A stretch of 64,000 nt of DNA from Torpedo marmorata (taxonomy: Eukaryota): contig OZ360228.1 in the NCBI GenBank assembly GCA_977017645.1, forward strand, positions 82,212,001-82,276,000, in the 5' to 3' direction. The notes under the pieces were generated by a model. It saw only the letters and a list, made by a program, of their open reading frames with translations. It was not told the DNA's origin and made no database searches. The translations under genes and the position numbers were made by a program. Below, in pieces: positions 19,941 to 63,650 of the stretch; within the stretch, counting starts at the first letter, position 1; each line of letters opens with the position of its first letter.

Positions 19941-21528
19941 GTGAAATATTGAAATTATTTCAATAGAAATTTTTTAATCAGCATAAAAAGCATGAGAGAG
20001 ATCTAGAAAATCGTTTAAAATATATGCATCTATTTGATTTTTCAGGTTTCGGATTTAAAATTAATTACATTTGAGAGTGGTGTATTAGAAAATAATTACC
20101 TGCAAGAATTAATTCTTAAATTTAGGTTAAGCCCCATAAAATCCAGAAATTTCAAAGCTATTAGTTTTCAGCAGTTTGCAATAGAATCACATAATTTTTC
20201 AAAATCTTGTCAATTTAACATCATTTTATTGTGGCCCCATTGTAAAAACTCTGAAAATATATGCAAAATTCTAAATGGCTTTTTTATTGTCTTACAAAGC
20301 CATAATTACCATGCCCCCCACATAATAATTAATTTTCCTTTTGTAGCTTGTAACACCCTCACACATACTTCAAAATATAATAGATTTTAAAATGTTTATT
20401 TATCTTTTGGCTTCTATCTTAAAATGTTAGTTCTTATTGTTATTTAGCACTCTGCAAATTGTTTAAAAAGTTCATCAAAATGGTACCTTTTGCTTCCTGG
20501 TCTGTGATAATTTCCCTTTAATGTGATTTGTTGCTCATCAAATTTGATGACATTTTGGTGCTGCATGACTGAAATCTCTTTGAAGTGATACCAGACAGCA
20601 ACCAACATTTGAAAAGTAGTTCTCACCACTGATCATCCTGGGATGATTTCTTCAATGTTTGGGCCAAACTTTTCGGCAAAGCCAATATCTGTATCATCGC
20701 AATAGGGATAACTTCAAGAGGGGAATGATGTTGAAAATACATTTAAACTGTATTAACATTGTACTTGTCTATTTAACTTTAATTTGTTTCTCCAAAATTG
20801 CTTTCCTGACTTGAAAGCTGATTTCCAATTACAAGTATGGATTTTTGACTCAGTAAATCTTGTATATAGTGAAATTTCAACTGAATAGTCCTTGTCATAT
20901 CTACCACCTCCCTGTACACAAATCTTTTTTTTGCCCCTTATCCACTTATTCAATCTATTATTTAATTTTGGCATGATTCCTGTCTTAACTACCAATGTGG
21001 AAGTGAATTCCATGCTCTCTACTACTCCCCTTTCTCCTTAAAATTATTCATAACTTGTCTATGCTGTGGCTGAAACAGTATAAAATGTCACAGAGCTGCA
21101 GAAAAATTGAGCTCAAGAATAATAAATCTAGAGATCCAACACAAAAGTCAGTTCAAATTGTAAATGCACTAATTATGCTTAGAATGGAACTAAACAATCT
21201 ATTGCCTATGGGTATGGAGACCTTGCTTCAGCAGAAAGCAATATCATGAAGATTGCAATGATGATAAGCTCCATGCCTGCATCTTTTACCAGTAGTTGCA
21301 GAGTTCAATTATTGCATACCATGGAAAAACAAATATTTTACCTCATGCCCCAATGAAAACAATAAGTAATTTGCTATTTAGAATTCAGAACCTCAAACTA
21401 TTTTGCTTAAGCTCATTATTTAGTGAGACTCCCGATTTGAAGCAGCTCTCACAACTGTCTAATCTAGGCAATAGAGACCCAAGCAACCATAAAGTTAGCA
21501 GTATTTTGGCAACCAAACAGGGCCTTAA

Positions 21529-21652
21529 ACAAGAAAATCTGCAGATGCTGGGGTCAAGTGCAATGCACAAATATGCTGAAGAAACTCAGCAGGTCACACA
21601 GCATCTGTATGGATGCTACGTGACCTACTGAGTTTCTCCAGCACATTTGTGT
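21529..21652. mobile_element. Short inverted pair of Penelope-like termini (hairpin)
   Basis: GCTGAAGAAACTCAGCAGGTCACACAGCATC...GATGCTACGTGACCTACTGAGTTTCTCCAGC. Confidence 0.7.
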
Positions 21653-22766
21653 AACAACCAGGGTCTGATGGGTTCCCTGTTGAATTCGATAAAGTTAGAT
21701 CCTCTCAGCTGATAACAATGTAATAAAAATTATCCCATTCATGCATGTTTGAAGTATCTTCTCAGTCACAATCTGTGGAATGGCAAACAACTATTCACAT
21801 AAGAATCAAACATCCTACTGTATGTATATTTACCTACATTCAATAATGATCATAAAATAAAAACCAAAGTTCTGGCCTCCAGGCTGAACATGACAGCAAA
21901 CAAACTACTCCACAAATGCCAAATTACTGAGGCATTTTGAGGAAGAGATAACAATGAGGTACTCTGCATTAGGACCAGACTTCGTACACTGTATTTTCAC
22001 TCTTCATAAATGGCATTCAAACACTGGAAATTCTTTCTACCCAAGCATATGAAAAGAACACTTGGTGACATATTTAAAACTTACATTAAGAATTTATATT
22101 CCAAACTCTTTTGCTGTGAATTACGAAACCTCCCTACTTTCTACCTTCAAATAAGCATTCCTATTATATATGCTTTGACCATCAAATCTTTGGTAACAGC
22201 ACAACAATAAATGAAGAATGGAAGCTAGTGAGAATAAACTCAAAATAATATTGTGAGTTGGAGATATATACCAGTACCACTGTCTTGTTGTCTGTTATAT
22301 TTGAACATATCAATTACTGAGGGCACTTTTGGGTTACAGAGATAAACAGCAAAACAGACGTACATTAGTCAAGAAATTGAACACATTTGTACGTGTTTTT
22401 AAACACAAATCAAGCATGAAAGGCACTTTACACTTGTTTTAACCAAGCAGTGAATGTTCTCTTATTCATATACTGCCTATTGAGAAATTGAACTGGGCAA
22501 GTATGGCCACAATTGAGATAGACTAAGATTTCTCTGGTGTTACTTGTGCATGTAAAAATGTATCAACATGAATAGTTGTCATTTCTGCCTTAAGTGTTGG
22601 ATATTGGAGCAATAACATGCAACTTATGGCCTTTGTTTTTAACTCTCTCTGAGACAAGGAACAAACCATGTGTATAAGTTGAGTGGTAAGATCTGGGAGG
22701 AATTGATGGGGCTGTGGGAAACATGAAATGTAAATTGGTGCTTGATGGTCAGCTTGGATCAAATGG

Positions 22767-22886
22767 CCTGTTTTCCTGAGGTTTGTCTCTATAGCTCCTG
22801 TTTTCCTGAGGTTTGTCTCTATAGCTCCTGTTTTCCTGAGGTTTGTCTCTATAGCTCCTGTTTTCCTGAGGTTTGTCTCTATAGCT
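22767..22886. repeat. 30-bp tandem repeat, 4 copies
   Basis: (CCTGTTTTCCTGAGGTTTGTCTCTATAGCT)x4. Confidence 0.95.
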
Positions 22887-23356
22887 CTGACATACTTAGG
22901 AAGATGAACCTCATCTAAGGCAAAATGACCAGGTTAATTATCACCCAGTCTATTACTCTGAGCATTCATTCCCTCCACAACTGTCCTACCATGGCTGCAG
23001 TGTGCCTCATCAATCGCAGCTAGTCACGGAGTCTACTCCAACTTCCAAACCCATAATCTCTACCACCAAGAAGGACAAGGACAGTAGGCACACGGAAAGG
23101 ACACCACCTGCAGGTTTCATGATTTGGAAATATATTGCTGGGTATAAATCCTGGAGCTCTGTATCCGCCAGTACTGTGTGAGTTAAAACAGAAAATGCTG
23201 GAAACCCTCCACAGGTCATTTACTTGACACACTAAACACCATTTCTTTCTCCACCCATACTGCCTCACCTGCTGAGTATTCCCAGCTTTGATTTTTATTT
23301 TTGTTTCTGATTTCCAGCATTTTGCAAGCTCTACAGGAATAATTATGACTCTATGA

Positions 23357-23818
23357 TAGTGGTACTCAACCTTTTTTTTTCCACTTACATACCACCTCAA
23401 GTAATCCCTTACTAACCACAGAGCACCTGATGGAGAGCTCCAGGATTTTTCCCAGCAATATATTTCCAAATCATGAAACCTGCAGGTGGTATCCTTTCCG
23501 TGTGCCTACTGTCCTTGTCCTTCTTGGTGGTAGAGATTATGGGTTTGGAAGTTGGAGTAGACTCCGTGACTAGCTGCGATTGATGAGGCACACTGCAGCC
23601 ATGGTAGGACAGTTGTGGAGGGAATGAATGCTCAGAGTAATAGACTGGGTGATAATTAACCTGGTCATTTTGCCTTAGATGAGGTTCATCTTCCTAAGTA
23701 TGTCGGAGCTATAGAGACAAACCTCAGGAAAACAGGAGCTATAGAGACAAACCTCAGGAAAACAGGCCCTTTGATCCAAGGTGGTATGTGAGTGGAAAAA
23801 AAAAGTTGAGAACCACTG
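23357..23818. mobile_element. hAT MITE carrying a 347-bp inverted copy of nearby upstream DNA
   Basis: TIRs TAGTGGTACTCAACC / GTTGAGAACCACTG; 8-bp TSD CTCTATGA at 23349-23356 and 23819-23826; 23434-23780 is the reverse complement of 22753-23160. Confidence 0.92.
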
Positions 23819-26558
23819 CTCTATGACAATAACTTCACCAGCAGTTCACCACCACCTTCTTAAGGGCAAATAACAATGAATGGTAAATACTGGTCATATT
23901 GGTTGATATACTAATTGTATCATTAAAAATGGCTTCCAAATCTGCAAATTGACATTCCTGAATGCTGTTCCCGTGCCTTGTGTTTCCTGCTCTAATATGT
24001 AGAGGTAAAGAAAGTCAAGAAGACGCAAAGATGAAAAAAGACCAGGAACGCAAAAAAAAAGGAGATAAGAGTCTGCAGATGCTGGGATGTGGAGCAAAAA
24101 CAAACTGCCGGAGGAACTCAGCGGATGGACGAGCATCTGTGGGGGAAAGGAATTGCCGGCGTTTCAGGAGGAGACACTGCATCTGGAGGGTATTGATTTT
24201 TGATGCAATAGAAGTATATTGATCGCTAAAGGCCCCATTATTGCTCTACGTGATCGTAGTTTCCTCAAGTCCCGGTTTCATCATCTCTATCCATGCACAC
24301 GATCGTAAAAGTGAAGAATTTACCACGAACCTGTCCCCAAAATGACATAGACCTGTTGTCTATTTAAACTCGTGATCAAAAACGTTTGTGAGACTGACGC
24401 GATTCTATTTATTTTGCATATGAAGGGACGTCTTCACTGTTTTATTGTTCATTTTGAAGTCAGCAACTTAGCCTATGAATTAAAATGCACATTTCGCAAA
24501 TTATTCTTATGGTTCCAAACCTTCCATGGTAAAATTTTAAATGCCCGAACAGACTGAGACTGAGAGGACATGTTTCCCTTGTAAAGTTTTACTTCCCCCA
24601 GTTTCACTGAACGTCTGGTTACCCGGTAAAAAAAATATTCCGTGTACTTCATCCATTGTTTGTATTGTTTTAATCTGTTTATCCTCCTGTCGCCATGAGT
24701 TGCCTTTATGCCTTAGTTTTCGTCCCCCTTCTCCTCCACTGTACTTTCTCTTACTCGGGCTGTTTTTTGCCGCTCCGGAAGAACTCAAATCACATGCGAG
24801 AGGATTCTAAATAAAATACGTGTTATTTACAAGAAAACTGATTAAAAAAGGAGGTCTAACTAGTTTGAGAAAACGGAAAGAGGGAAGTATGCATCTTGTT
24901 TATAGATACGGTATAGGTGCGCTAATCTCCGGTGGCTTGTTGGATGTGCAATTATTACCCATTTCAGCAGGAAGGAAGTGAAATATTACAGATCGGATAA
25001 GTGAGGCTTTATGAACTCTGTGCTAAACTAGCACAGTGACGTACATACTTCCCAACAAATTGCATGAGCTGGGCGGCCACTTATTAGTCGAACTGCCTGA
25101 TAGTTACAGCTCTCTTTCCTCAAATGGAACTAACATGGGAGTTAAGGAGTTTGTGACTTTCCTCAGCGCGTCGTCGATTCAGTCACCTTCAAAGAATTTG
25201 AATTTATTGAACTATGTTGTCCTTGTGTCAAAGCATAGTCATGCAAATGAATTAAATGAGATGATTTTGGAGCAAATGTGTTAAATGTATGGTAAGTTAC
25301 CTTTTAATATTGATTCAGTCATTATTGGTACTCTATGTGGTAAGACTGAGATTGTTATGTATTGCAGTTCTTTGTACCGATCAATAGAAAATGACAGTGG
25401 TTATTTAAGCTGCATATGGATTTCTTATTACTGAAGCCACACGTGCCGCACTCAGCAAAACGCCAGCGCGCTGTTGAATACTGATATCTTTACTTTTACA
25501 AAAGCACATACATATTTTGAACATCGATTGACTGATATTCTAATAGAGTTCCATCTGGTTTAACTTATTTTAGATTTTAGTGCCAGGAGCAGTGTCTGTA
25601 TTCAGTTAAAGGTTACTGCTGATGCTGGGCTCAATTAAGTACGATTAATGTTGTAGTTTTGGAAGTAAAATTGAACTTGTGCTTTTAGAATCTTTTGTTC
25701 GATGCTTAAAACCATGGCTCAACAGAATTTAACGATAAAATATGCAGAATTAAACACGTTTACATTAATACACGTTAGGCAACGTATGCCAGGTTGTTTT
25801 TTCATATACCTATGAATGAGATGAGATGCCTATTTTAGTTGAAAGCCATTTTCATGTAAAGTCGAAAAATAAAAATGTACTGACGTTTATTGTGTTGTAT
25901 ACTTTTGTATCTGCCAAATGTTTACGCACTTGTAATGCTTTCCTTGCGGCTGCATCCATCTTAGAAACATTTCCCTACAGCTTTAAATGAAGGTGGGTGT
26001 TGGTCGACGTTTCGTAAATAAGGTAGAGATGACCGTGCGTGTGATCTGACCCAACGCGCGATACAGTTGTGGGATTTTGTATGAATAATATCGGAATTCC
26101 ATCTTTTATATATGTCATTTAGAATCTTAGAATTGTTACCACAGAGAAAGGTGCCATTCGGCCCATCAAGCCAAGGTAGTTTAACAGTTGTGCAACCGTT
26201 TTCTTATTGAAGCTGTTGATAGTTTGGATTTTTGCAATGAGACTTTTGGGGAAATGGCAAAACTTTTTTTGATGCAGTTTACGAACCTAACCTGATTTTT
26301 TTTTTTAAAAAAATGAACACGCAGAGAACAAAATCTACCCATTGTGGAAAGGGTCGACCGTAAATAACGCACGTTAAAGATATTCCATCCTTCACGGGAT
26401 GAAATAATACTATTCATTGCGGAGCATCTCGAGGTTCATTTCGATGGGTCCAACTCCAGCAGACCTCTGCTGGAATTCCATGTGCCTGTTCTGTTGGGCA
26501 CTGTTAATACTCAGCGCTGTCCCTGTGAGTGCTGCTTCAGTCTCTCTGCACATTGTAT

Positions 26559-26725
26559 TGATTGACAGTTCACCGTGGAAATCACGGCGACGGGCGGTCG
26601 CTGCACAAATGGGGAGAGGCCTTCGCCTGTGATTGGCAGCTGGGGAGGGGCTGGTGCGTGTGATGAAGGGTTGGGGCGGAGCCGGCGCGTGTGATTGGCA
26701 GCGGGGACGGGTCCCGCTGACGTCG
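26559..26725 (+). promoter_or_regulatory. Candidate proximal promoter of BMP4
   Basis: TGATTGACAG 26559-26568; two TGTGATTGGCAGC (inverted CCAAT) at 26628 and 26690; GC box GGGGCGGAGC 26673-26682; CRE-like TGACGTCG 26718-26725; GC/CpG-rich and directly upstream of the conserved 5' UTR exon. Confidence 0.65.
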
Positions 26726-26759
26726 AGGAGAGGAAGCGGAGACGGCTCATTATATTCAA

Positions 26760-26891
26760 ATACTGTTCCAGGAGGGATTCGACAATACGTAGCCGAGCGG
26801 CCAGCTCCAGAGTCCCTGAGCTTTTCAAGAACTTGTCCAAGATCGGCTGTCAAGAATCATGGATTGTTTTCGTCTGCCTTGTTTTCTGTCA
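26760..26891 (+). other. BMP4: BMP4 5' UTR exon (5' boundary uncertain)
   Basis: CAAGATCGGCTGTCAAGAATCATGGA...TGCCTTGTTTTCTGTCA resembles the mammalian BMP4 leader exon as I recall it; donor GTGAGT at 26892; splices to acceptor CAG at 27521-27523. Confidence 0.8.
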
Positions 26892-27530
26892 GTGAGTAGA
26901 CCTTTTTGTACTTTTCTAATGGCTGGGAGGGATTTCATTATCCATCTGTTTGTACACTAACAATGTGTGTGTGTGTTTAACTATTTATTCGATTTCTCCC
27001 TTAGCTTGTACTTGCGATCATTTCCTACATGATTAATTGTAGCTCTCTGTTGGGTGAGACTATGGCTCTTTGCACTTGTGCCTTGGTTGTCAGAAAGCAA
27101 TTAAGGAAATGTTGTGCCAATAGAGCGGAGATAATCAACTTGCTCGATGTGAAAGACGTGAAAGTGAACACAATGAAAGTAAAACTATTTTGACACTAAA
27201 GGAACGTGTACCCCCCCCCCATCCATCTCCACCATTCTCAACAATTATGGGCCGTTCGATAAGATGCCCGTTGCAGGATTTTTTTGGTGTCGCTTCCAAA
27301 AAAGCAGCCTATGATAATTACTAAGATAGTGAAAACACAGAGTAACAGGATGGTGCTATCTGCCTGATTATGGGCTATTTAACTGTAACCGAGAGAGACC
27401 ATGTAATTATACCTCTTCTCCCACTCTCTTTTTCTGCGTCGTGCGCTCTCTCTCTCTGGGGCGTGGATTGAAGATCACCCTTAATTCTCATTTTTTTTTA
27501 TTGTTGCTTGTTTTGCTCTGCAGAGACACC

Positions 27531-27882
27531 ATGATTCCTGGTAACCGAATGCTGATGGTAATTTTATTATGCCAAGTCTTGCTGGGAGGTAATGCTAGTC
27601 TGATACCAGAGGAAGGAAGGAAAAAGTTTGCAGAACAAAACCAGGCTGGTGGACGTCGCTCTCCGCAAAACTATGAACTGCTGCGGGAATTCGAGGCCAC
27701 TTTACTCAATATGTTGGGACTCCACCGGCGCCCACAGCCGAGTAAATCTGCCGTGGTTCCCCAGTACATGCTGGATCTATACAGACTCCAGTCTGGGGAC
27801 GAGGTCACCCATGACATTAGCTTCGAGTATCCCGAGAGACCCACCAGCCGGGCCAACACCGTGAGGAGCTTTCACCATGAAG
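27531..27882 (+). CDS. BMP4: Bone morphogenetic protein 4, coding exon 1 (signal peptide and N-terminal prodomain)
   Basis: [20 protein letters not shown]...[12 protein letters not shown] is the diagnostic BMP4 N-terminus; acceptor ...CTCTGCAG at 27523; phase-1 donor GT at 27883. Confidence 0.97.
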
Positions 27883-28359
27883 GTATTGGACCATCAACCA
27901 CTGTACGAAAAACACAGATTTTTCTTTTTGTTTGAGTGATAATGATAGCAGAACATGGCGGGAGTTTAATATGAAGTGTATACAGGGGTAATTTATTTCA
28001 GTGGGTTTCTGTGCAGCATTATGACCACGGGAGATGAGGTTAATTGCCAATATACTTTAGAACATCTTTCGACCGCGTATATGATCTTAAAATGTAAATA
28101 TATATGTGTGTGTATATAAGTATGTATATTTCGCAAAATATATATACTGTATAAACACACACACGTGTGTTGTGTGTGTCTGTGCGCTCTCATCGCTTTC
28201 GTCCATTGTTTTTTTTTGAGGACGACCAGCTTTGCAAGGCGGGTCTTTGTTGGCCTGCTCTCGGTCTGCTAACAAACGTTAGTTTAGTCCAGGGATATGC
28301 ACACTTTACTTGGGTGAATCGGATTCTAAGGGTTGTCTTTCATTTCTGTTGTGGAACAG

Positions 28360-29198
28360 AACACTTGGAGCTGATGCCAGGGCAAAAGGAAGACACCCAA
28401 CTTCGTTTTGTGTTTAATATCAGCGCGGTGCCCGAGAATGAGGTGCTCTCGTCGGCAGAACTGAGGCTGTATCGAGAACAAATCGACACCGTTTTGAACT
28501 GGAACGAAGGTTTCCATCGCATCAATGTTTATGAAATCATGAGAACCCCCAGCGAGAAGGGCGACCTCATCACCAGACTCCTCGACACCAGACTGGTCCA
28601 CCAGAACAGGACGCGATGGGAGAGCTTCGACGTGAGCCCAGCTGTGCTCAGATGGACCTTGCAGAAACAACCCAACCACGGGCTGGCCGTCGAGGTGATT
28701 CACCTGAACGAAACAAAAAGCCGGCAAGGTATGCACGTGCGGATTAGCAGGTCGCTTCACCAGAGGCACGGCGACTGGTCTCAGTTCAGACCCTTGCTTG
28801 TAACCTTCAGCCACGATGGCAAAGGACATGCTCTGATCCGGAGGGTGAAACGTAGTAGCAAAGGCCAGAAACGCAGGAAGAACAGATCGCACTGCAGGAG
28901 GCACTCTCTCTACGTGGATTTTAGCGACGTGGGCTGGAATGACTGGATAGTGGCACCGCCTGGTTACCAGGCTTTCTACTGTCACGGAGACTGCCCCTTT
29001 CCACTGGCAGATCATCTGAACTCTACTAATCATGCTATCGTGCAAACGCTTGTAAACTCTGTAAATTCCAACATCCCCAAGGCTTGCTGTGTCCCTACAG
29101 AACTCAGTCCCATATCCATGCTCTACTTGGACGAATACGATAAAGTTGTTCTGAAAAACTATCAGGAGATGGTTGTGGAGGGATGTGGGTGCCGCTGA
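28360..29198 (+). CDS. BMP4: Bone morphogenetic protein 4, coding exon 2 (rest of prodomain and mature TGF-beta domain); spliced CDS 1191 nt, 396 aa
   Basis: Acceptor AACAG at 28359; furin sites RISR (28740-28751) and RVKR (28842-28853); 7-cysteine domain [37 protein letters not shown]...[13 protein letters not shown]; stop TGA 29196-29198. Confidence 0.98.
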
Positions 29199-58356: not shown

Positions 58357-61020
58357 AAGTTCAAAGTTCAAATTTATTGTCAGAGTACAAACATGATATC
58401 ACATACAACCCTCAGATTCTTTATCCTGTGAGCCAGGCAGAATTTCTACTTATTGGTAACTGTAAACTGTACTCAAGAATAAAGATACGTATACAAAAGA
58501 GAGAAATATAAACAAAGACAGAAATGTAAACAAACTAACTGCAATACAGAAAAAAAAATCAGGAGTAAATAATGTGCAAACTAATAGTCTTTAAATGAGT
58601 CTCTGATTGAGTTAGTTGTTGAGGAGTCTGATGGTGGAGGGGTAGCAACTGTTTCTGAATCTGGTGATACCAGTCCTGTGGTACCTATATCTCTTTCCTG
58701 ATGGCAGCAGTGAGAACAGAGCATATCCTGGGTGGTGTGGATCCTTGATGATTGCTGCTGCTCTCCAACGGCAGTGTTCCATGAAGATGTTCTCGATGGT
58801 GGGGAGAGTTTTGCCTGTGATGTACTGGGCTGTTGTCCTCTACCTTTTGCAGGGCTTTCCACTCAGAGATATGGCGCCCCCATGCCAGGCTGTGATGCCG
58901 CCGGTCAGCACACTTTCCACTACACATCTGTAGAAGTTTGCCAAGGTTTCCAATGTCATACCAAACCTCCACAAACTCCTGAGGAAGTAGAGGCACTGAC
59001 GTGCTTTCTTCATGATGATAGTATGTTGGCCCAGGAAAGGTCCTCCGAGATAGTGACTCCCAGGAATTTGCACATTATTTACTCCTGATTTTTTTTTTCT
59101 GTATTGCAGTTAGTTTCCTCACCTTCTCCACCTCTGAACCCACAATGATCACTGGATCATACACTTCGGGTCTTCTCTTCCTAAAGTCCACAATCAGCTC
59201 TTTGGTTTTGGTGACATTGAGTGCGAGGATTTTTTTTGTTTTTTTTAAAATATTTTATTTAAATTTTTAAATCACACAATACACAATTCAAAATATATAG
59301 TTTCCAAAATACAAGTGATATAAATTTCCTCCCCCCACACCCTCCCACCTTTCCCTAACCCCCCCCCCCAACCCCACTAATCTAAAAATAGTAAAAAAAA
59401 AGAAAAAGAAAAGTAGATTAATAGTGAGGAGAGAACCATCTAAAAACTTATTTTATCCTGGAGGTTAAACTCTCCAATAGACCTGATTTCTAGAGATTTC
59501 AAATCCTTAAACCCATAACTCTCATATATGGGCTCCAAATTTTTAAAAAAGAATGATATTTATTACGTAAATTGTAAGTAATTTTTTCCAAAGGAATACA
59601 CGAACGAAGTTCTGCATGCCACCTATCTAAATTTAAATCTAAATCTGATTTCCAAGTAATAGCAATACATTTTTTTGAAACAGCTAAAGCAATTCGCAAA
59701 AATTCTACCTGATACATATTCAATCTATTCCTAATACTAAATTTTCTAATATCTCCAAATAGAAATAACATAGGGTCCATTGGAAACATAACATTCAAAA
59801 CTCTCTCTAAAAAATTCTTAACTTTCAGCCAAAAATCTTGAATCTTTGGACATAACCATGTAGAATGAACAAAAGAACCTACTTCATTCTTACATCTAAA
59901 ACACAAATCCGACAATGTCGGGTTAAATTTCTTTAATTTTTTTGGTGTTAAATATAATTGATGAAAAAAATTATATTGTACTAATCTATATCTAACATTA
60001 ATAACTTTAGTCATACTTAACTTACATAAATCTTCCCAATGTTTTTCAGCTATATTAACATTTAAATCTAATTCCCATTTTAATCTTGATTTATGTAATC
60101 CTACTTTAGGCATTTTTCTCTGAAATAATTTATACATTTGAGAAATAAACTTATTAACATTTGCTTTAGTTATTAATAGTTCTAACTCATTATGCCTTGG
60201 AGCAATCAAATCTTCTCCTAATTTCTCAACCAGAAAAGCTTTAACTTGATAATAAGCTAGCCATGTATTATCTAATACATTAAATTTTTCCTTCAATCTT
60301 TGAAACGTAACAAATCTTCCAGCCTCAAAACAATCTTTAAAATTCTTAATTCCTTTTTGAAACCATGCTTTCAATAATTGATTATTCATAGTAAATAATA
60401 AAAGTGGATTTTGATATAATGGCATATTTAAAGAAATTAATCCTTTCCCGCCTATTTCTTTATCTACCTGTGTCCATATTTCCAACAAATGTTTAATAAT
60501 CGGTGAATTTTTCTTTTTTACTAATAATAATTTAGAATTCCACTTATAGATAATATCCTCTTTATAATTTTCTCCTATATTATTTAATTCTATATTAACC
60601 CAAGCAGAAGTTTTAGCTAAATCAAAAAATTCATTAACAAATTTTAATTGAGCTGCTTTATAATAATATTGAAAATTAGGAAGTTGCAATCCTCCCATCT
60701 CATAATTCCATGTTAACTTATCCATACTCACTCTTGCTAACTTCTCTTTCCATAAAAATTTCCTAATTATAAACTTTAATTCTTTAAAAAAATTTTTTGG
60801 AATTCCAAAAGGAATTGATTGAAAAAGATATTGAATTCTTGGAAAAATATTCATCTTAATACAATTTACTCTCCCCATTAAAGTTATAGGCAAATCTTTA
60901 TTGAGTGCGAGGTTGTTGTTAGTACACCATTCAGCCAAGTTTTCAATCTCCTTCATGTATGCTGACTCATCGCCCCTTTTTATACAGCCCACTACTGAGG
61001 TATCGTCAGCAAATTTACAA
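58357..61020 (-). mobile_element. Rex1/Babar family 1 copy split by an L1 insertion (58357-59228 and 60900-61020)
   Basis: KFADDTSVVGCIKRGDESAY...; KKARQCLYFLRSL; tail (TTTGAAC)n. Confidence 0.88.
59229..60899 (-). mobile_element. Young 5'-truncated L1-clade LINE with intact ORF2 C-terminus
   Basis: 13-bp TSD ATTGAGTGCGAGG at 59216-59228 and 60900-60912; poly-A tail; LPITLMGRVNCIKMNIFPRIQYLFQ, GGLQLPN, CFRC...H...C zinc knuckle; no stop for about 466 codons. Confidence 0.92.
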
Positions 61021-61740
61021 GTACCTGTATGGCAGCAGTTAGTAAGAATTTCAGTGCATATGTACATTATACAATATGTATAGCAATAGACTCATCAGCT
61101 TCATATCCCTCAATTGACCTTAGACAGACTGGACTACAACTGGATTGGAGTTCTTAAAGGCAAGAGAGGAGTAATGTTGATTTCACTCTTGGTTGATAGA
61201 CTTTACTCGGAAGAGTGAGTAGAAACAAAGCAATGTAAAGGGTGAAATTCTAATGCGGTTAAAAGAGCAGTGAAATCTGGGTGAATGTGCACATAAATCT
61301 TAGAAGGAAGGAAGTTGAGAAACTGGTTACTCAAATCCTGAGGCATCAATTAAAAATTTGAGAAAGGAATAATAAACCTTTCTAAGACACTGCAGTCACC
61401 TTTTTAGGCTCCAACAGGCTCAGGAAACTGGATTCAGGTCCATATTTGATCTGAAGTATTGTAATCAGTGCTGCTCATCGCAGCTTGGCAGTATGTGAGG
61501 GTGTCTGGAGTGCAGAAAATACTTGCTGGAATGTTTCCAAGATGAGAGAAATGTCTCTTCTCCAGCCACCTTTAATGGAAGGTTCCATGCAGTTGGAACT
61601 TCCTGATGTTCAGTTTCAGAATGTTTTATTCATTTGAGTTTGGTTTAATAAGAAGTTCCTGTGAAGATGATGTTCCCACCTAGCTGCCTGTCCAGAACCA
61701 GGGGGTAACAATCCACAAATAGTGGATCAGCCATTGAGGG

Positions 61741-63016: not shown

Positions 63017-63650
63017 TCATAGAACCATAGAAAACCGACAGCACAATACAGGCCCTTCGGCCCACAAAGTTGTGCCGAACATGTCACTACTCTAGGAATT
63101 GATAGACTTACTTATATCCCTCTATATTTCTGAGCTCCATGTACCTATCCAAAAGTCTCTTAAAAGTCCCTATAGAATCCGCCCTCACCACCGTTGCCGG
63201 CAACTCATTCCACGCACCCACCACTCTCTGCGTAAAAAACGTACCTCTGACATTTCCTTCTTCCCAACACCTTAAACCTGTGTCCCCTTGTAGCAACCAT
63301 TTCGGCCCTGGGAAAAAGCCTCTGACTGTCTACACGATCAAAGCCCCTTATCATCTTAAACACCTCAATCATGTCCCCTCTCATTCTCCTTCGTTCCAAG
63401 GAGAAAAGGCCTAGTTCCCTCAACCTGTTTTCATAGGGCATGCTCCCTAAACCAGGCAACATCCTAGTAAATCTCCTCTGCACCCTTTCTAATGCCTCCA
63501 CATCCTTCCTGTAGTGAGGCGACCAGAACTGCACACAATACTCCGATATAGGTCTGACCAACGTCCTATACAGTTGCAACATTACCTCTCGACTCCTAAA
63601 TTCAATTCCTCGATTTATAAAGGCCAATACATCGTAGCCTTCTTAACCAC
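63017..63650 (-). mobile_element. CR1/L2 LINE 3' end
   Basis: ORF 63205..63627 FINRGIEFRSREVMLQLYRTLVRP...ERVQRRFTRMLPGL; tail (TTCTATG)n. Confidence 0.9.

Follow-up and report, generated by a model that had tools for sequence, protein, structure and literature searches.

A hairpin MITE upstream of a BMP2/4-type gene in Torpedo marmorata carries an inverted copy of its own flank, with probable later copying between the arms

The 64,000-nucleotide stretch analysed in this study (the window; positions 82,212,001 to 82,276,000 of Torpedo marmorata contig OZ360228.1, without any N) contains, upstream of a BMP2/4-type gene, a miniature inverted-repeat transposable element (MITE) whose centre is occupied by an inverted copy of the DNA just outside it. 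Each ingredient of the locus is known: it is a single, old and immobile capture of local sequence by inverted template switch at a hairpin-forming MITE, similar to the elements called Pack-TIRs after their terminal inverted repeats (TIRs). What is new is that the inverted repeat so formed has arms only 1.4% apart, with lineage-specific changes in common, pointing to copying from arm to arm after the capture. It is considered probable, if short of certain, that a hairpin MITE suffered a late break or replication stall, captured its flank by template switching and later exchanged sequence between the two copies.

The element spans 23357-23818 (462 bp) and lies inside an exact 8-bp target-site duplication (TSD), CTCTATGA (Table 1). 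Compared with the majority sequence of its family, the left arm has four substitutions and a 1-bp insertion; two of the substitutions fall within the TIR, and one of these is the loss of the terminal C. A preliminary description of this DNA, made from the letters alone, had credited the element with two TIRs and a perfect TSD, of which the TSD and the right TIR are intact but the left TIR is altered. An extra G at the left junction is unique genome-wide and is also present in sequencing run X1 (see below), and the genome search returned no subfamily with this base. The reverse complement relationship between 23434-23780 and 22753-23160 is supported by a BLAST alignment of 98.8% over 334 bp (E 8e-168). 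The arms differ by substitutions at donor positions 22764, 22888, 23102 and 23145, by a 1-bp indel at 23143, and by a further 60 bp resulting from the copy number of a 30-mer (4 in the donor, 2 in the cargo), while the 213 bp at 22889-23101 show no difference. Divergence between the arms is therefore 5/347 sites, and the geometry given in the preliminary description (a 347-bp reverse complement with about five differences besides repeat number, across a 273-bp spacer) was exact to the coordinate. Folded as single-stranded DNA, the region is predicted to form one stem of more than 300 bp at -463 kcal/mol.

Related organisms were compared through contigs from five runs (X1-X5), the region being partly covered by six runs from three studies. 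X3 reaches only repeat portions, and the runs listed include no RNA data set. In organism A, the left junction is bridged by an 83-bp contig of X1 (23403-23484), 31 bases of which belong to the MITE side, and X1 shows 0/212 differing letters from the window spacer apart from one gap. In organism B, a 788-bp contig of X2 (23659-24000) takes in part of the cargo, the right junction, the TIR, the TSD and flank, with 20 other letters in approximately 311 and one 30-mer unit, and a contig of X5, from the same sample as X2, joins donor and spacer and differs at 20 of 339 letters. Both relatives reached carry a cargo junction, and the joints that skip the cargo belong to other copies of the family. 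Since the junctions are spanned in other organisms, the structure is real and older than the split from organism B at approximately 6% divergence. The misassembly that the preliminary description named as a possible refutation is not borne out, each junction being spanned by a contig of another organism, but the recent origin that it implied is not upheld.

The arms within the window are closer to each other than to their counterparts in organism B, with 5/347 differences compared to 15/249 for the B donor (Fisher p 0.004) and 20/311 for the B cargo plus flank (p 0.0009). Both window arms carry G at donor position 22927 (cargo 23666), whereas the B donor, the B cargo and the X1 contigs have A; the chance expectation of such parallel sites is 0.004-0.07. 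Similarly, the B cargo and the ends of paralogous repeats contain one unit of the 30-mer, compared to identical tandem copies in one register in both window arms. Sites 23081 and 23144 and an indel at 22989 point in the same direction if the B contigs, which are unphased, are assigned to donor and cargo. X1 has one contig specific to the donor and one specific to the cargo; the two stop alike at donor position 23109 and feed a single 279-bp contig, which has 1.5-1.7 times single-copy depth and differs from both window arms at seven sites. A slower rate in the window lineage explains part of the low arm divergence, but the lineage-specific changes common to both arms exceed what rate explains. 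Judged from these sequences, it is likely that the two arms have been copied from each other since the capture.

The junctions give some indication of how the copy was made. At the right, three bases (AAG) are compatible with both the donor and the right arm of the family, in agreement with the microhomology reported in the preliminary description. The word proposed there for the left junction, ACAGAGC(A/T)CC, is indeed common to the MITE (23418-23427) and the reverse strand of the donor (23162-23153); however, both copies are retained in the product and the join is out of register with the word, so the shared word was not the crossover. Searches of the whole 6.2-Gb assembly returned one match for the right-junction 23-mer with at most one mismatch allowed, and one exact match for the left-junction 21-mer. 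The four switch points of the template-switch model correspond to 23433 (point 1), 23160 (point 2), 22753 (point 3) and the right arm of the MITE (point 4), in the order 3-2-1-4.

A 261-bp query was used to search for the origin of the cargo, and among the best 40 of 128 candidates that were scored, only two places were near-identical, namely the donor and the cargo, while 38 other places matched at 70-93% over short pieces. The adjacent copy is 99% identical to the cargo, and the next best match reaches 93% over 46 bp; dispersed repeats thus score lower than the neighbouring copy, and the earlier proposal that a TIR element captured its adjacent flank, inverted, by template switch is sustained. 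Longer pairwise alignments to 18 loci gave 67-77% identity. The source of the cargo is therefore the adjacent flank, and the cargo itself is decayed repeat debris. The start of the donor arm is the last part of a repeat resembling a short interspersed element (SINE), and a single terminal unit similar to the 30-mer occurs in 4/8 other copies of that repeat, with tandem units in 0/8. The remainder belongs largely to an old dispersed repeat, which we take to be similar to the 3' end of a long interspersed element (LINE). The possibility that the left part of the donor is the 3' end of a CR1-like element at window position 63205 was rejected, as no meaningful alignment was obtained. A cargo of this composition, a SINE-like 3' end and an old dispersed repeat, would not answer to the "cis-regulatory DNA" of the preliminary description. 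The transposed daughter copies that it envisaged were also absent, with neither the cargo search nor the two junction words revealing copies at new sites in this assembly. Because both junctions are unique in the genome, the cargo-bearing element is single-copy and has not moved, and its description as potentially mobile is further at odds with a left end that lacks the terminal C and another TIR base.

The carrier belongs to a large family. Exact matches to a 28-base arm motif number 4,507 in the genome (an element with two intact arms scoring twice), compared to 0 for a reversed-pattern control. The first 30 loci resolved into 27 elements, comprising 22 with both ends (including L028, counted as intact since its right arm is present) and 5 half-elements. 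Members of the family form a near-perfect hairpin over the whole element with a variable centre, and have short TIRs, no coding capacity and many copies. Intact elements were 159-163 bp long in 10/22 cases and 132-133 bp in 2/22. Since the commoner 159-163-bp form shares the right-end type carried by the window copy, approximately 43 bp of the MITE were probably lost at capture; the figure of about 14 central bases given in the preliminary description assumes the 132-bp form and is less likely. A TSD with at most one mismatch was found in 15/24 measured family rows, and target positions 4-5 are TA in 44/48 strand-symmetrised counts, the window copy having CTC-TA-TGA. An 8-bp TSD with the target consensus nnnTAnnn is the signature described for Buster-type hAT elements (PMC3517528). 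As presented in that paper, Buster-family hAT MITEs such as Mar share with this family short TIRs starting with CAG, the 8-bp TSD with central TA, the absence of coding capacity and a high copy number, but the present family differs from them in its whole-element hairpin and variable centre.

Breakage at the centre of these elements seems to be common. The 5 half-elements all end 3-16 bases beyond the arm motif although approximately 90 positions are possible, a clustering with a chance of about 2 in 10,000 under uniform breakage (hand calculation). No partner arm was found within 5 kb of the half-elements, a partner farther off being possible. A pattern for breaks after the central ATGG (the point at which the cargo begins) gave 53 matches, of which 49 were examined, leaving out four near-periodic matches on contig C61. 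These comprised 12 half-elements, 1 fragment, 1 LINE-like insertion and 35 intact elements with variant centres; the 12 half-elements stop at the same base as the left junction of the cargo, but because the pattern selects for such breaks it gives no rate. The sequences thus suggest that the MITE centre is fragile and often broken. A long inverted copy of flanking DNA was found in 0/76 other elements (27 sampled and 49 centre-variant), which makes a capture of this size a rare event in the family, and a family-wide capture habit is rejected on these elements. The element with the LINE-like insertion (L132:4356-5072, also labelled L071), the one case of both arms enclosing extra DNA, has a TSD and contains 572 bp of a LINE-like 3' end, 5'-truncated and tailed by (TATTGTC)n, which entered at the central base where the window cargo also begins; it was rejected as a flank capture, given the absence of a local source and the tandem tail, and is read as a retro-insertion. 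In addition, among 12 matches to truncated arms, a rearranged MITE at L086:1501-1640 contains a 110-bp inverted repeat (92.7%) whose arms include approximately 13 bp of non-MITE flank, and appears to be a fold-back comparable in type to the window structure but smaller.

Taken together, these data suggest the following history. A MITE from a family of thousands of copies inserted into older repeat debris. Long after insertion, a break or a stalled replication fork probably occurred at the hairpin tip, the same centre at which the half-elements of the family end. The new strand would then have left the MITE at 23433, copied from 23160 back to 22753 on the opposite strand, and returned at AAG to the right arm, with approximately 43 bp lost. 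The order of switches may have been 3-2-1-4 or its mirror on the other strand, the two being indistinguishable. The structure was already in place before the split from organism B and has no second copy in the assembly, and gene conversion or repeated template switching has probably since moved later mutations and the 30-bp tandem duplication between the arms. It is most likely that the structure is neutral.

Several observations weigh against parts of this history. When differences were polarised by 18 paralogous repeat copies, in the well-aligned core and with a bias towards the query, most of those between the window and organism B were found to have arisen in B, with change in the window lineage estimated at approximately 2% per arm. 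The B lineage is faster, and therefore the Fisher tests overstate arm-to-arm copying; at a corrected expected arm divergence of 4%, the probability of five or fewer differences is 0.005. Only a single substitution can be polarised free of assumptions. Because bubbles are popped during contig assembly, the merged arms in X1 and the single unit in B could partly be assembly effects. The B contig taken as the cargo arm does not include the left junction, and the two arm-like contigs of B differ by approximately 11%, so any homogenisation there is weak. As for the capture, the looser in-register likeness between the last 30 bases of the MITE and the continuation of the donor was equalled by 37/1,500 random sites in a test devised after the data had been seen. 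A search for an autonomous partner found no arm or TIR within 1.5 kb of 30/150 PF05699 and 30/150 PF14291 matches. No cargo-free MITE was found at the orthologous site among the relatives reached, and thus the evidence that capture came long after insertion is the divergence of the MITE left arm alone (5 changes in 77 bp compared to approximately 2% per cargo arm, both small numbers). An X2 contig covering 23142-23232, whose first 21 letters misfit, departs from the window at 1 position, compared to 7-8 there in X4 and X5 of the same sample; it may represent an additional copy, a divergent haplotype or, in organism B, a cargo of greater length. Some of these points would be expected if the arms had never been copied from each other, the capture having occurred just before the split from B in a window lineage evolving several times more slowly, so that 1.4% is the age of the duplication. 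The polarisation, the near-identity of the X1 spacer and the distance between the arms of B all agree with such an account, which we nevertheless regard as rather unlikely, since it leaves unexplained the G at 22927/23666 in both window arms, the identical 30-mer tandem copies and, should the second B contig represent the cargo arm, site 23081 and the indel at 22989.

The capture itself may also have taken place during repair of a transposase-induced gap, with excision followed by re-copying from the sister chromatid, abortion at the hairpin tip and a switch to the flank, which was the route named in the preliminary description. This route yields the same product, restores both ends and the TSD, suits a highly active MITE family, and has been reported for P elements and considered possible for a minority of Pack-TIRs (main text of PMC8277862). 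However, a central breakpoint with a small loss is the pattern that the same text ties to transposition-independent repair, which a central hairpin break fits at least as well; the centre-broken half-elements are without one TIR, TSD and flank, as after a hairpin break, and the MITE arm seems farther from its family than the cargo arms are from their ancestor. Gap repair is considered unlikely. Selection on the inverted repeat through an effect on BMP4, whether by forming a cruciform, duplicating an enhancer or yielding a hairpin RNA, seems very improbable. The structure lies 2.8 kb from a likely promoter, its predicted stem is long and stable, and it has persisted across approximately 6% divergence although close inverted repeats have been described as fragile; on the other hand, the cargo is repeat debris, the copies in B have diverged as fast as their flanks (approximately 6%) with no constraint visible in that comparison, and an Rfam search of 21000-28000 returned no match. 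A narrower form of this idea, in which the arms are in step here and approximately 11% apart in the sister lineage and are retained because a cruciform or hairpin transcript influences BMP4, is scarcely less improbable. On present evidence, nothing in the sequence points to a BMP4-regulatory role or to mobile cargo. Inverted repeats are a known assembly hazard and no single contig among those listed covers the whole structure, but the chance of an assembly or fold-back read artefact is practically negligible and this explanation was rejected: contigs of other organisms span the junctions and bear their own substitutions, the arms are not identical, the cargo keeping the ancestral state at 22764 and the donor at 23102, and both joins fall within a MITE that has a clean TSD.

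The neighbouring gene is of BMP2/4 type, with its ATG at 27531, 3.7 kb from the element; the more specific name BMP4, used in the preliminary description, is presumed from the N-terminus. A GC/CCAAT-rich stretch at approximately 26580-26760, 2.8 kb from the element, is likely the promoter of this gene. Within this stretch, 26610-26711 is a repeat of 31-bp period with CCAAT- and GC-box-like words.

Several other observations were made on the repeats of this genome, which seem similar to those of cartilaginous fishes. Among matches to truncated arms, 9/12 are MITE arms interrupted at CCTT|AAG by an AT-rich, LINE-like tail that starts with poly(T) (approximately at position 1530 in L081-L083, L085, L087-L090 and L092), with L124 and L126 in addition; 8 share one tail, and in L124 and L126 the remainder of the element, with matching TSD, lies 2.4-2.9 kb off. 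From these sequences, a retrotransposon seems to insert preferentially into the MITE arm. Paired 132-bp MITE variants with a recurring spacer ending GATTAAAA occur at window positions 119-250/363-493 and in L037, L038 and L125-L129, and apparently move as a composite element. On contig C47 (G000:C47:95.4-99.7 Mb), approximately 4 Mb contain 14 of the top 30 loci for the hAT dimerisation domain, with near-equal scores (L135, L137-L145, L147, L155, L159 and L160), which suggests local amplification. Five identical matches to the ATGG-break pattern at approximately 70-kb spacing (G000:C61:45.30-45.59 Mb) suggest a tandem segmental array. The window also contains a 40-bp inverted repeat in SINE-like sequence (21566-21651; 88% complementary, 6-bp loop) and, on the minus strand at 59499-61091, an open frame of 530 aa that seems similar to the C-terminal part of a non-LTR (long terminal repeat) retrotransposon protein.

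Table 1. Coordinates, strand and supporting remarks for features of the inverted repeat and its surroundings (positions in the window).
Feature	Position	Strand	Remarks
Old dispersed SINE-like repeat, 3' end	22666-22796	+	8 other places, 76-87% identity; left limit approximate
Donor arm of long inverted repeat, 408 bp	22753-23160	+	
30-bp tandem array in donor	22767-22887	+	4 identical copies
Old dispersed repeat, decayed fragment	22890-23180	+	38 other places and 18-locus alignments
Spacer, 273 bp	23161-23433		End of old repeat, SINE-like remnant (~23184-23330), left TSD, left MITE arm
Left TSD CTCTATGA	23349-23356	+	
Left MITE arm, 77 bp, reaching hairpin centre	23357-23433	+	Comparison with family majority
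Cargo, 347-bp inverted copy of donor arm	23434-23780	-	
30-bp tandem array in cargo	23705-23766	-	2 identical copies; one copy in organism B
AAG microhomology, return junction	23778-23780	+	Loose-end consensus of family stops at 23777
Truncated right MITE arm, 38 bp, TIR intact	23781-23818	+	
Right TSD CTCTATGA	23819-23826	+	
BMP2/4-type gene, two coding exons	27531-29198	+	TGF-beta propeptide and mature domains; best PDB matches BMP2

The closest known counterparts of this locus are the Pack-TIRs of animals. The main text of Tan et al. 2021 (PMC8277862) reports 370 of them, with hAT elements the commonest carrier (208); 56.9% are found no farther than 15 kb from their parent, the median microhomology is 2 bp and breakpoints are internal. 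In primates, a cargo-free orthologue was found for 91/97, which is read there as transposition-independent gap filling, and single-copy Pack-TIRs are described as near their parent, with short microhomology and central breakpoints. Like these single-copy elements, the window element has both ends and a TSD around a filler of 100-5,000 bp (arms of 77 bp and 38 bp around 347 bp), one best parent less than 5 kb away, microhomology at one junction, a small internal loss and a single copy. The parent is unique at 99% identity (at least 90% being required) with a length ratio of 347/408 = 85% (within 80-120%), among the best 40 of 128 candidates. In contrast to the Pack-TIRs described in that text, which filters such cases out, the filler is repeat-derived and the parent is flanked by repeats, where the definition calls for non-transposable-element filler and no transposable element within 100 bp of the parent; the filler is also inverted 273 bp from its parent, creating a long inverted repeat. 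By analogy, the locus would work like a Pack-TIR and yet fall outside the catalogue of Tan et al. It has no daughters with new TSDs in this assembly, by which multicopy Pack-TIRs and Pack-MULEs are recognised. Neither "gene conversion" nor "shark" appears in the main text of PMC8277862, where the lineage of this locus is thus unmentioned, and no description of either this MITE family or a Pack-TIR that is both inverted and homogenised was found in a literature from which most subscription papers were missing.

In the four-point model for template switches, the type 3-2-1-4 creates an inverted repeat (PMC5453318; 10.1101/2023.04.19.537475), and together with 1-4-3-2 it makes up 31% of the human-chimp events of high confidence described by Loytynoja and Goldman 2017 (PMC5453318). 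The window event has the same switch order and likewise made an inverted repeat; compared to the tens of bases copied in the events of that study, it involves approximately 347 bp after a 273-bp jump, with the outer switch points in the MITE. The later history resembles that of short inverted repeats whose arms are described as homogenised by template switching (PMC8604942) and of sex-chromosome palindromes with arm-to-arm gene conversion (PMC3723533, PMC8600007, 10.1101/800185), in that the arms are closer within the genome than to those of relatives and lineage-specific changes occur in both. Arm divergence is lower than orthologous divergence, as in concerted evolution, a contrast weakened by the unequal rates. 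The present case differs from the systems described in those papers in its intermediate scale (347-bp arms and a 273-bp spacer), its non-coding debris, and a homogenisation that is partial and apparently weak in organism B. The locus offers a worked example of how a dead hairpin MITE could act as a fragile site and build a long inverted repeat from local DNA without transposase. If arm-to-arm copying is true, identity between cargo and parent is no clock, since the structure looks young (1.4%) yet predates a split of approximately 6%, and the locus would provide a natural test of the minimum length at which autosomal inverted repeats homogenise, and of when they escape.

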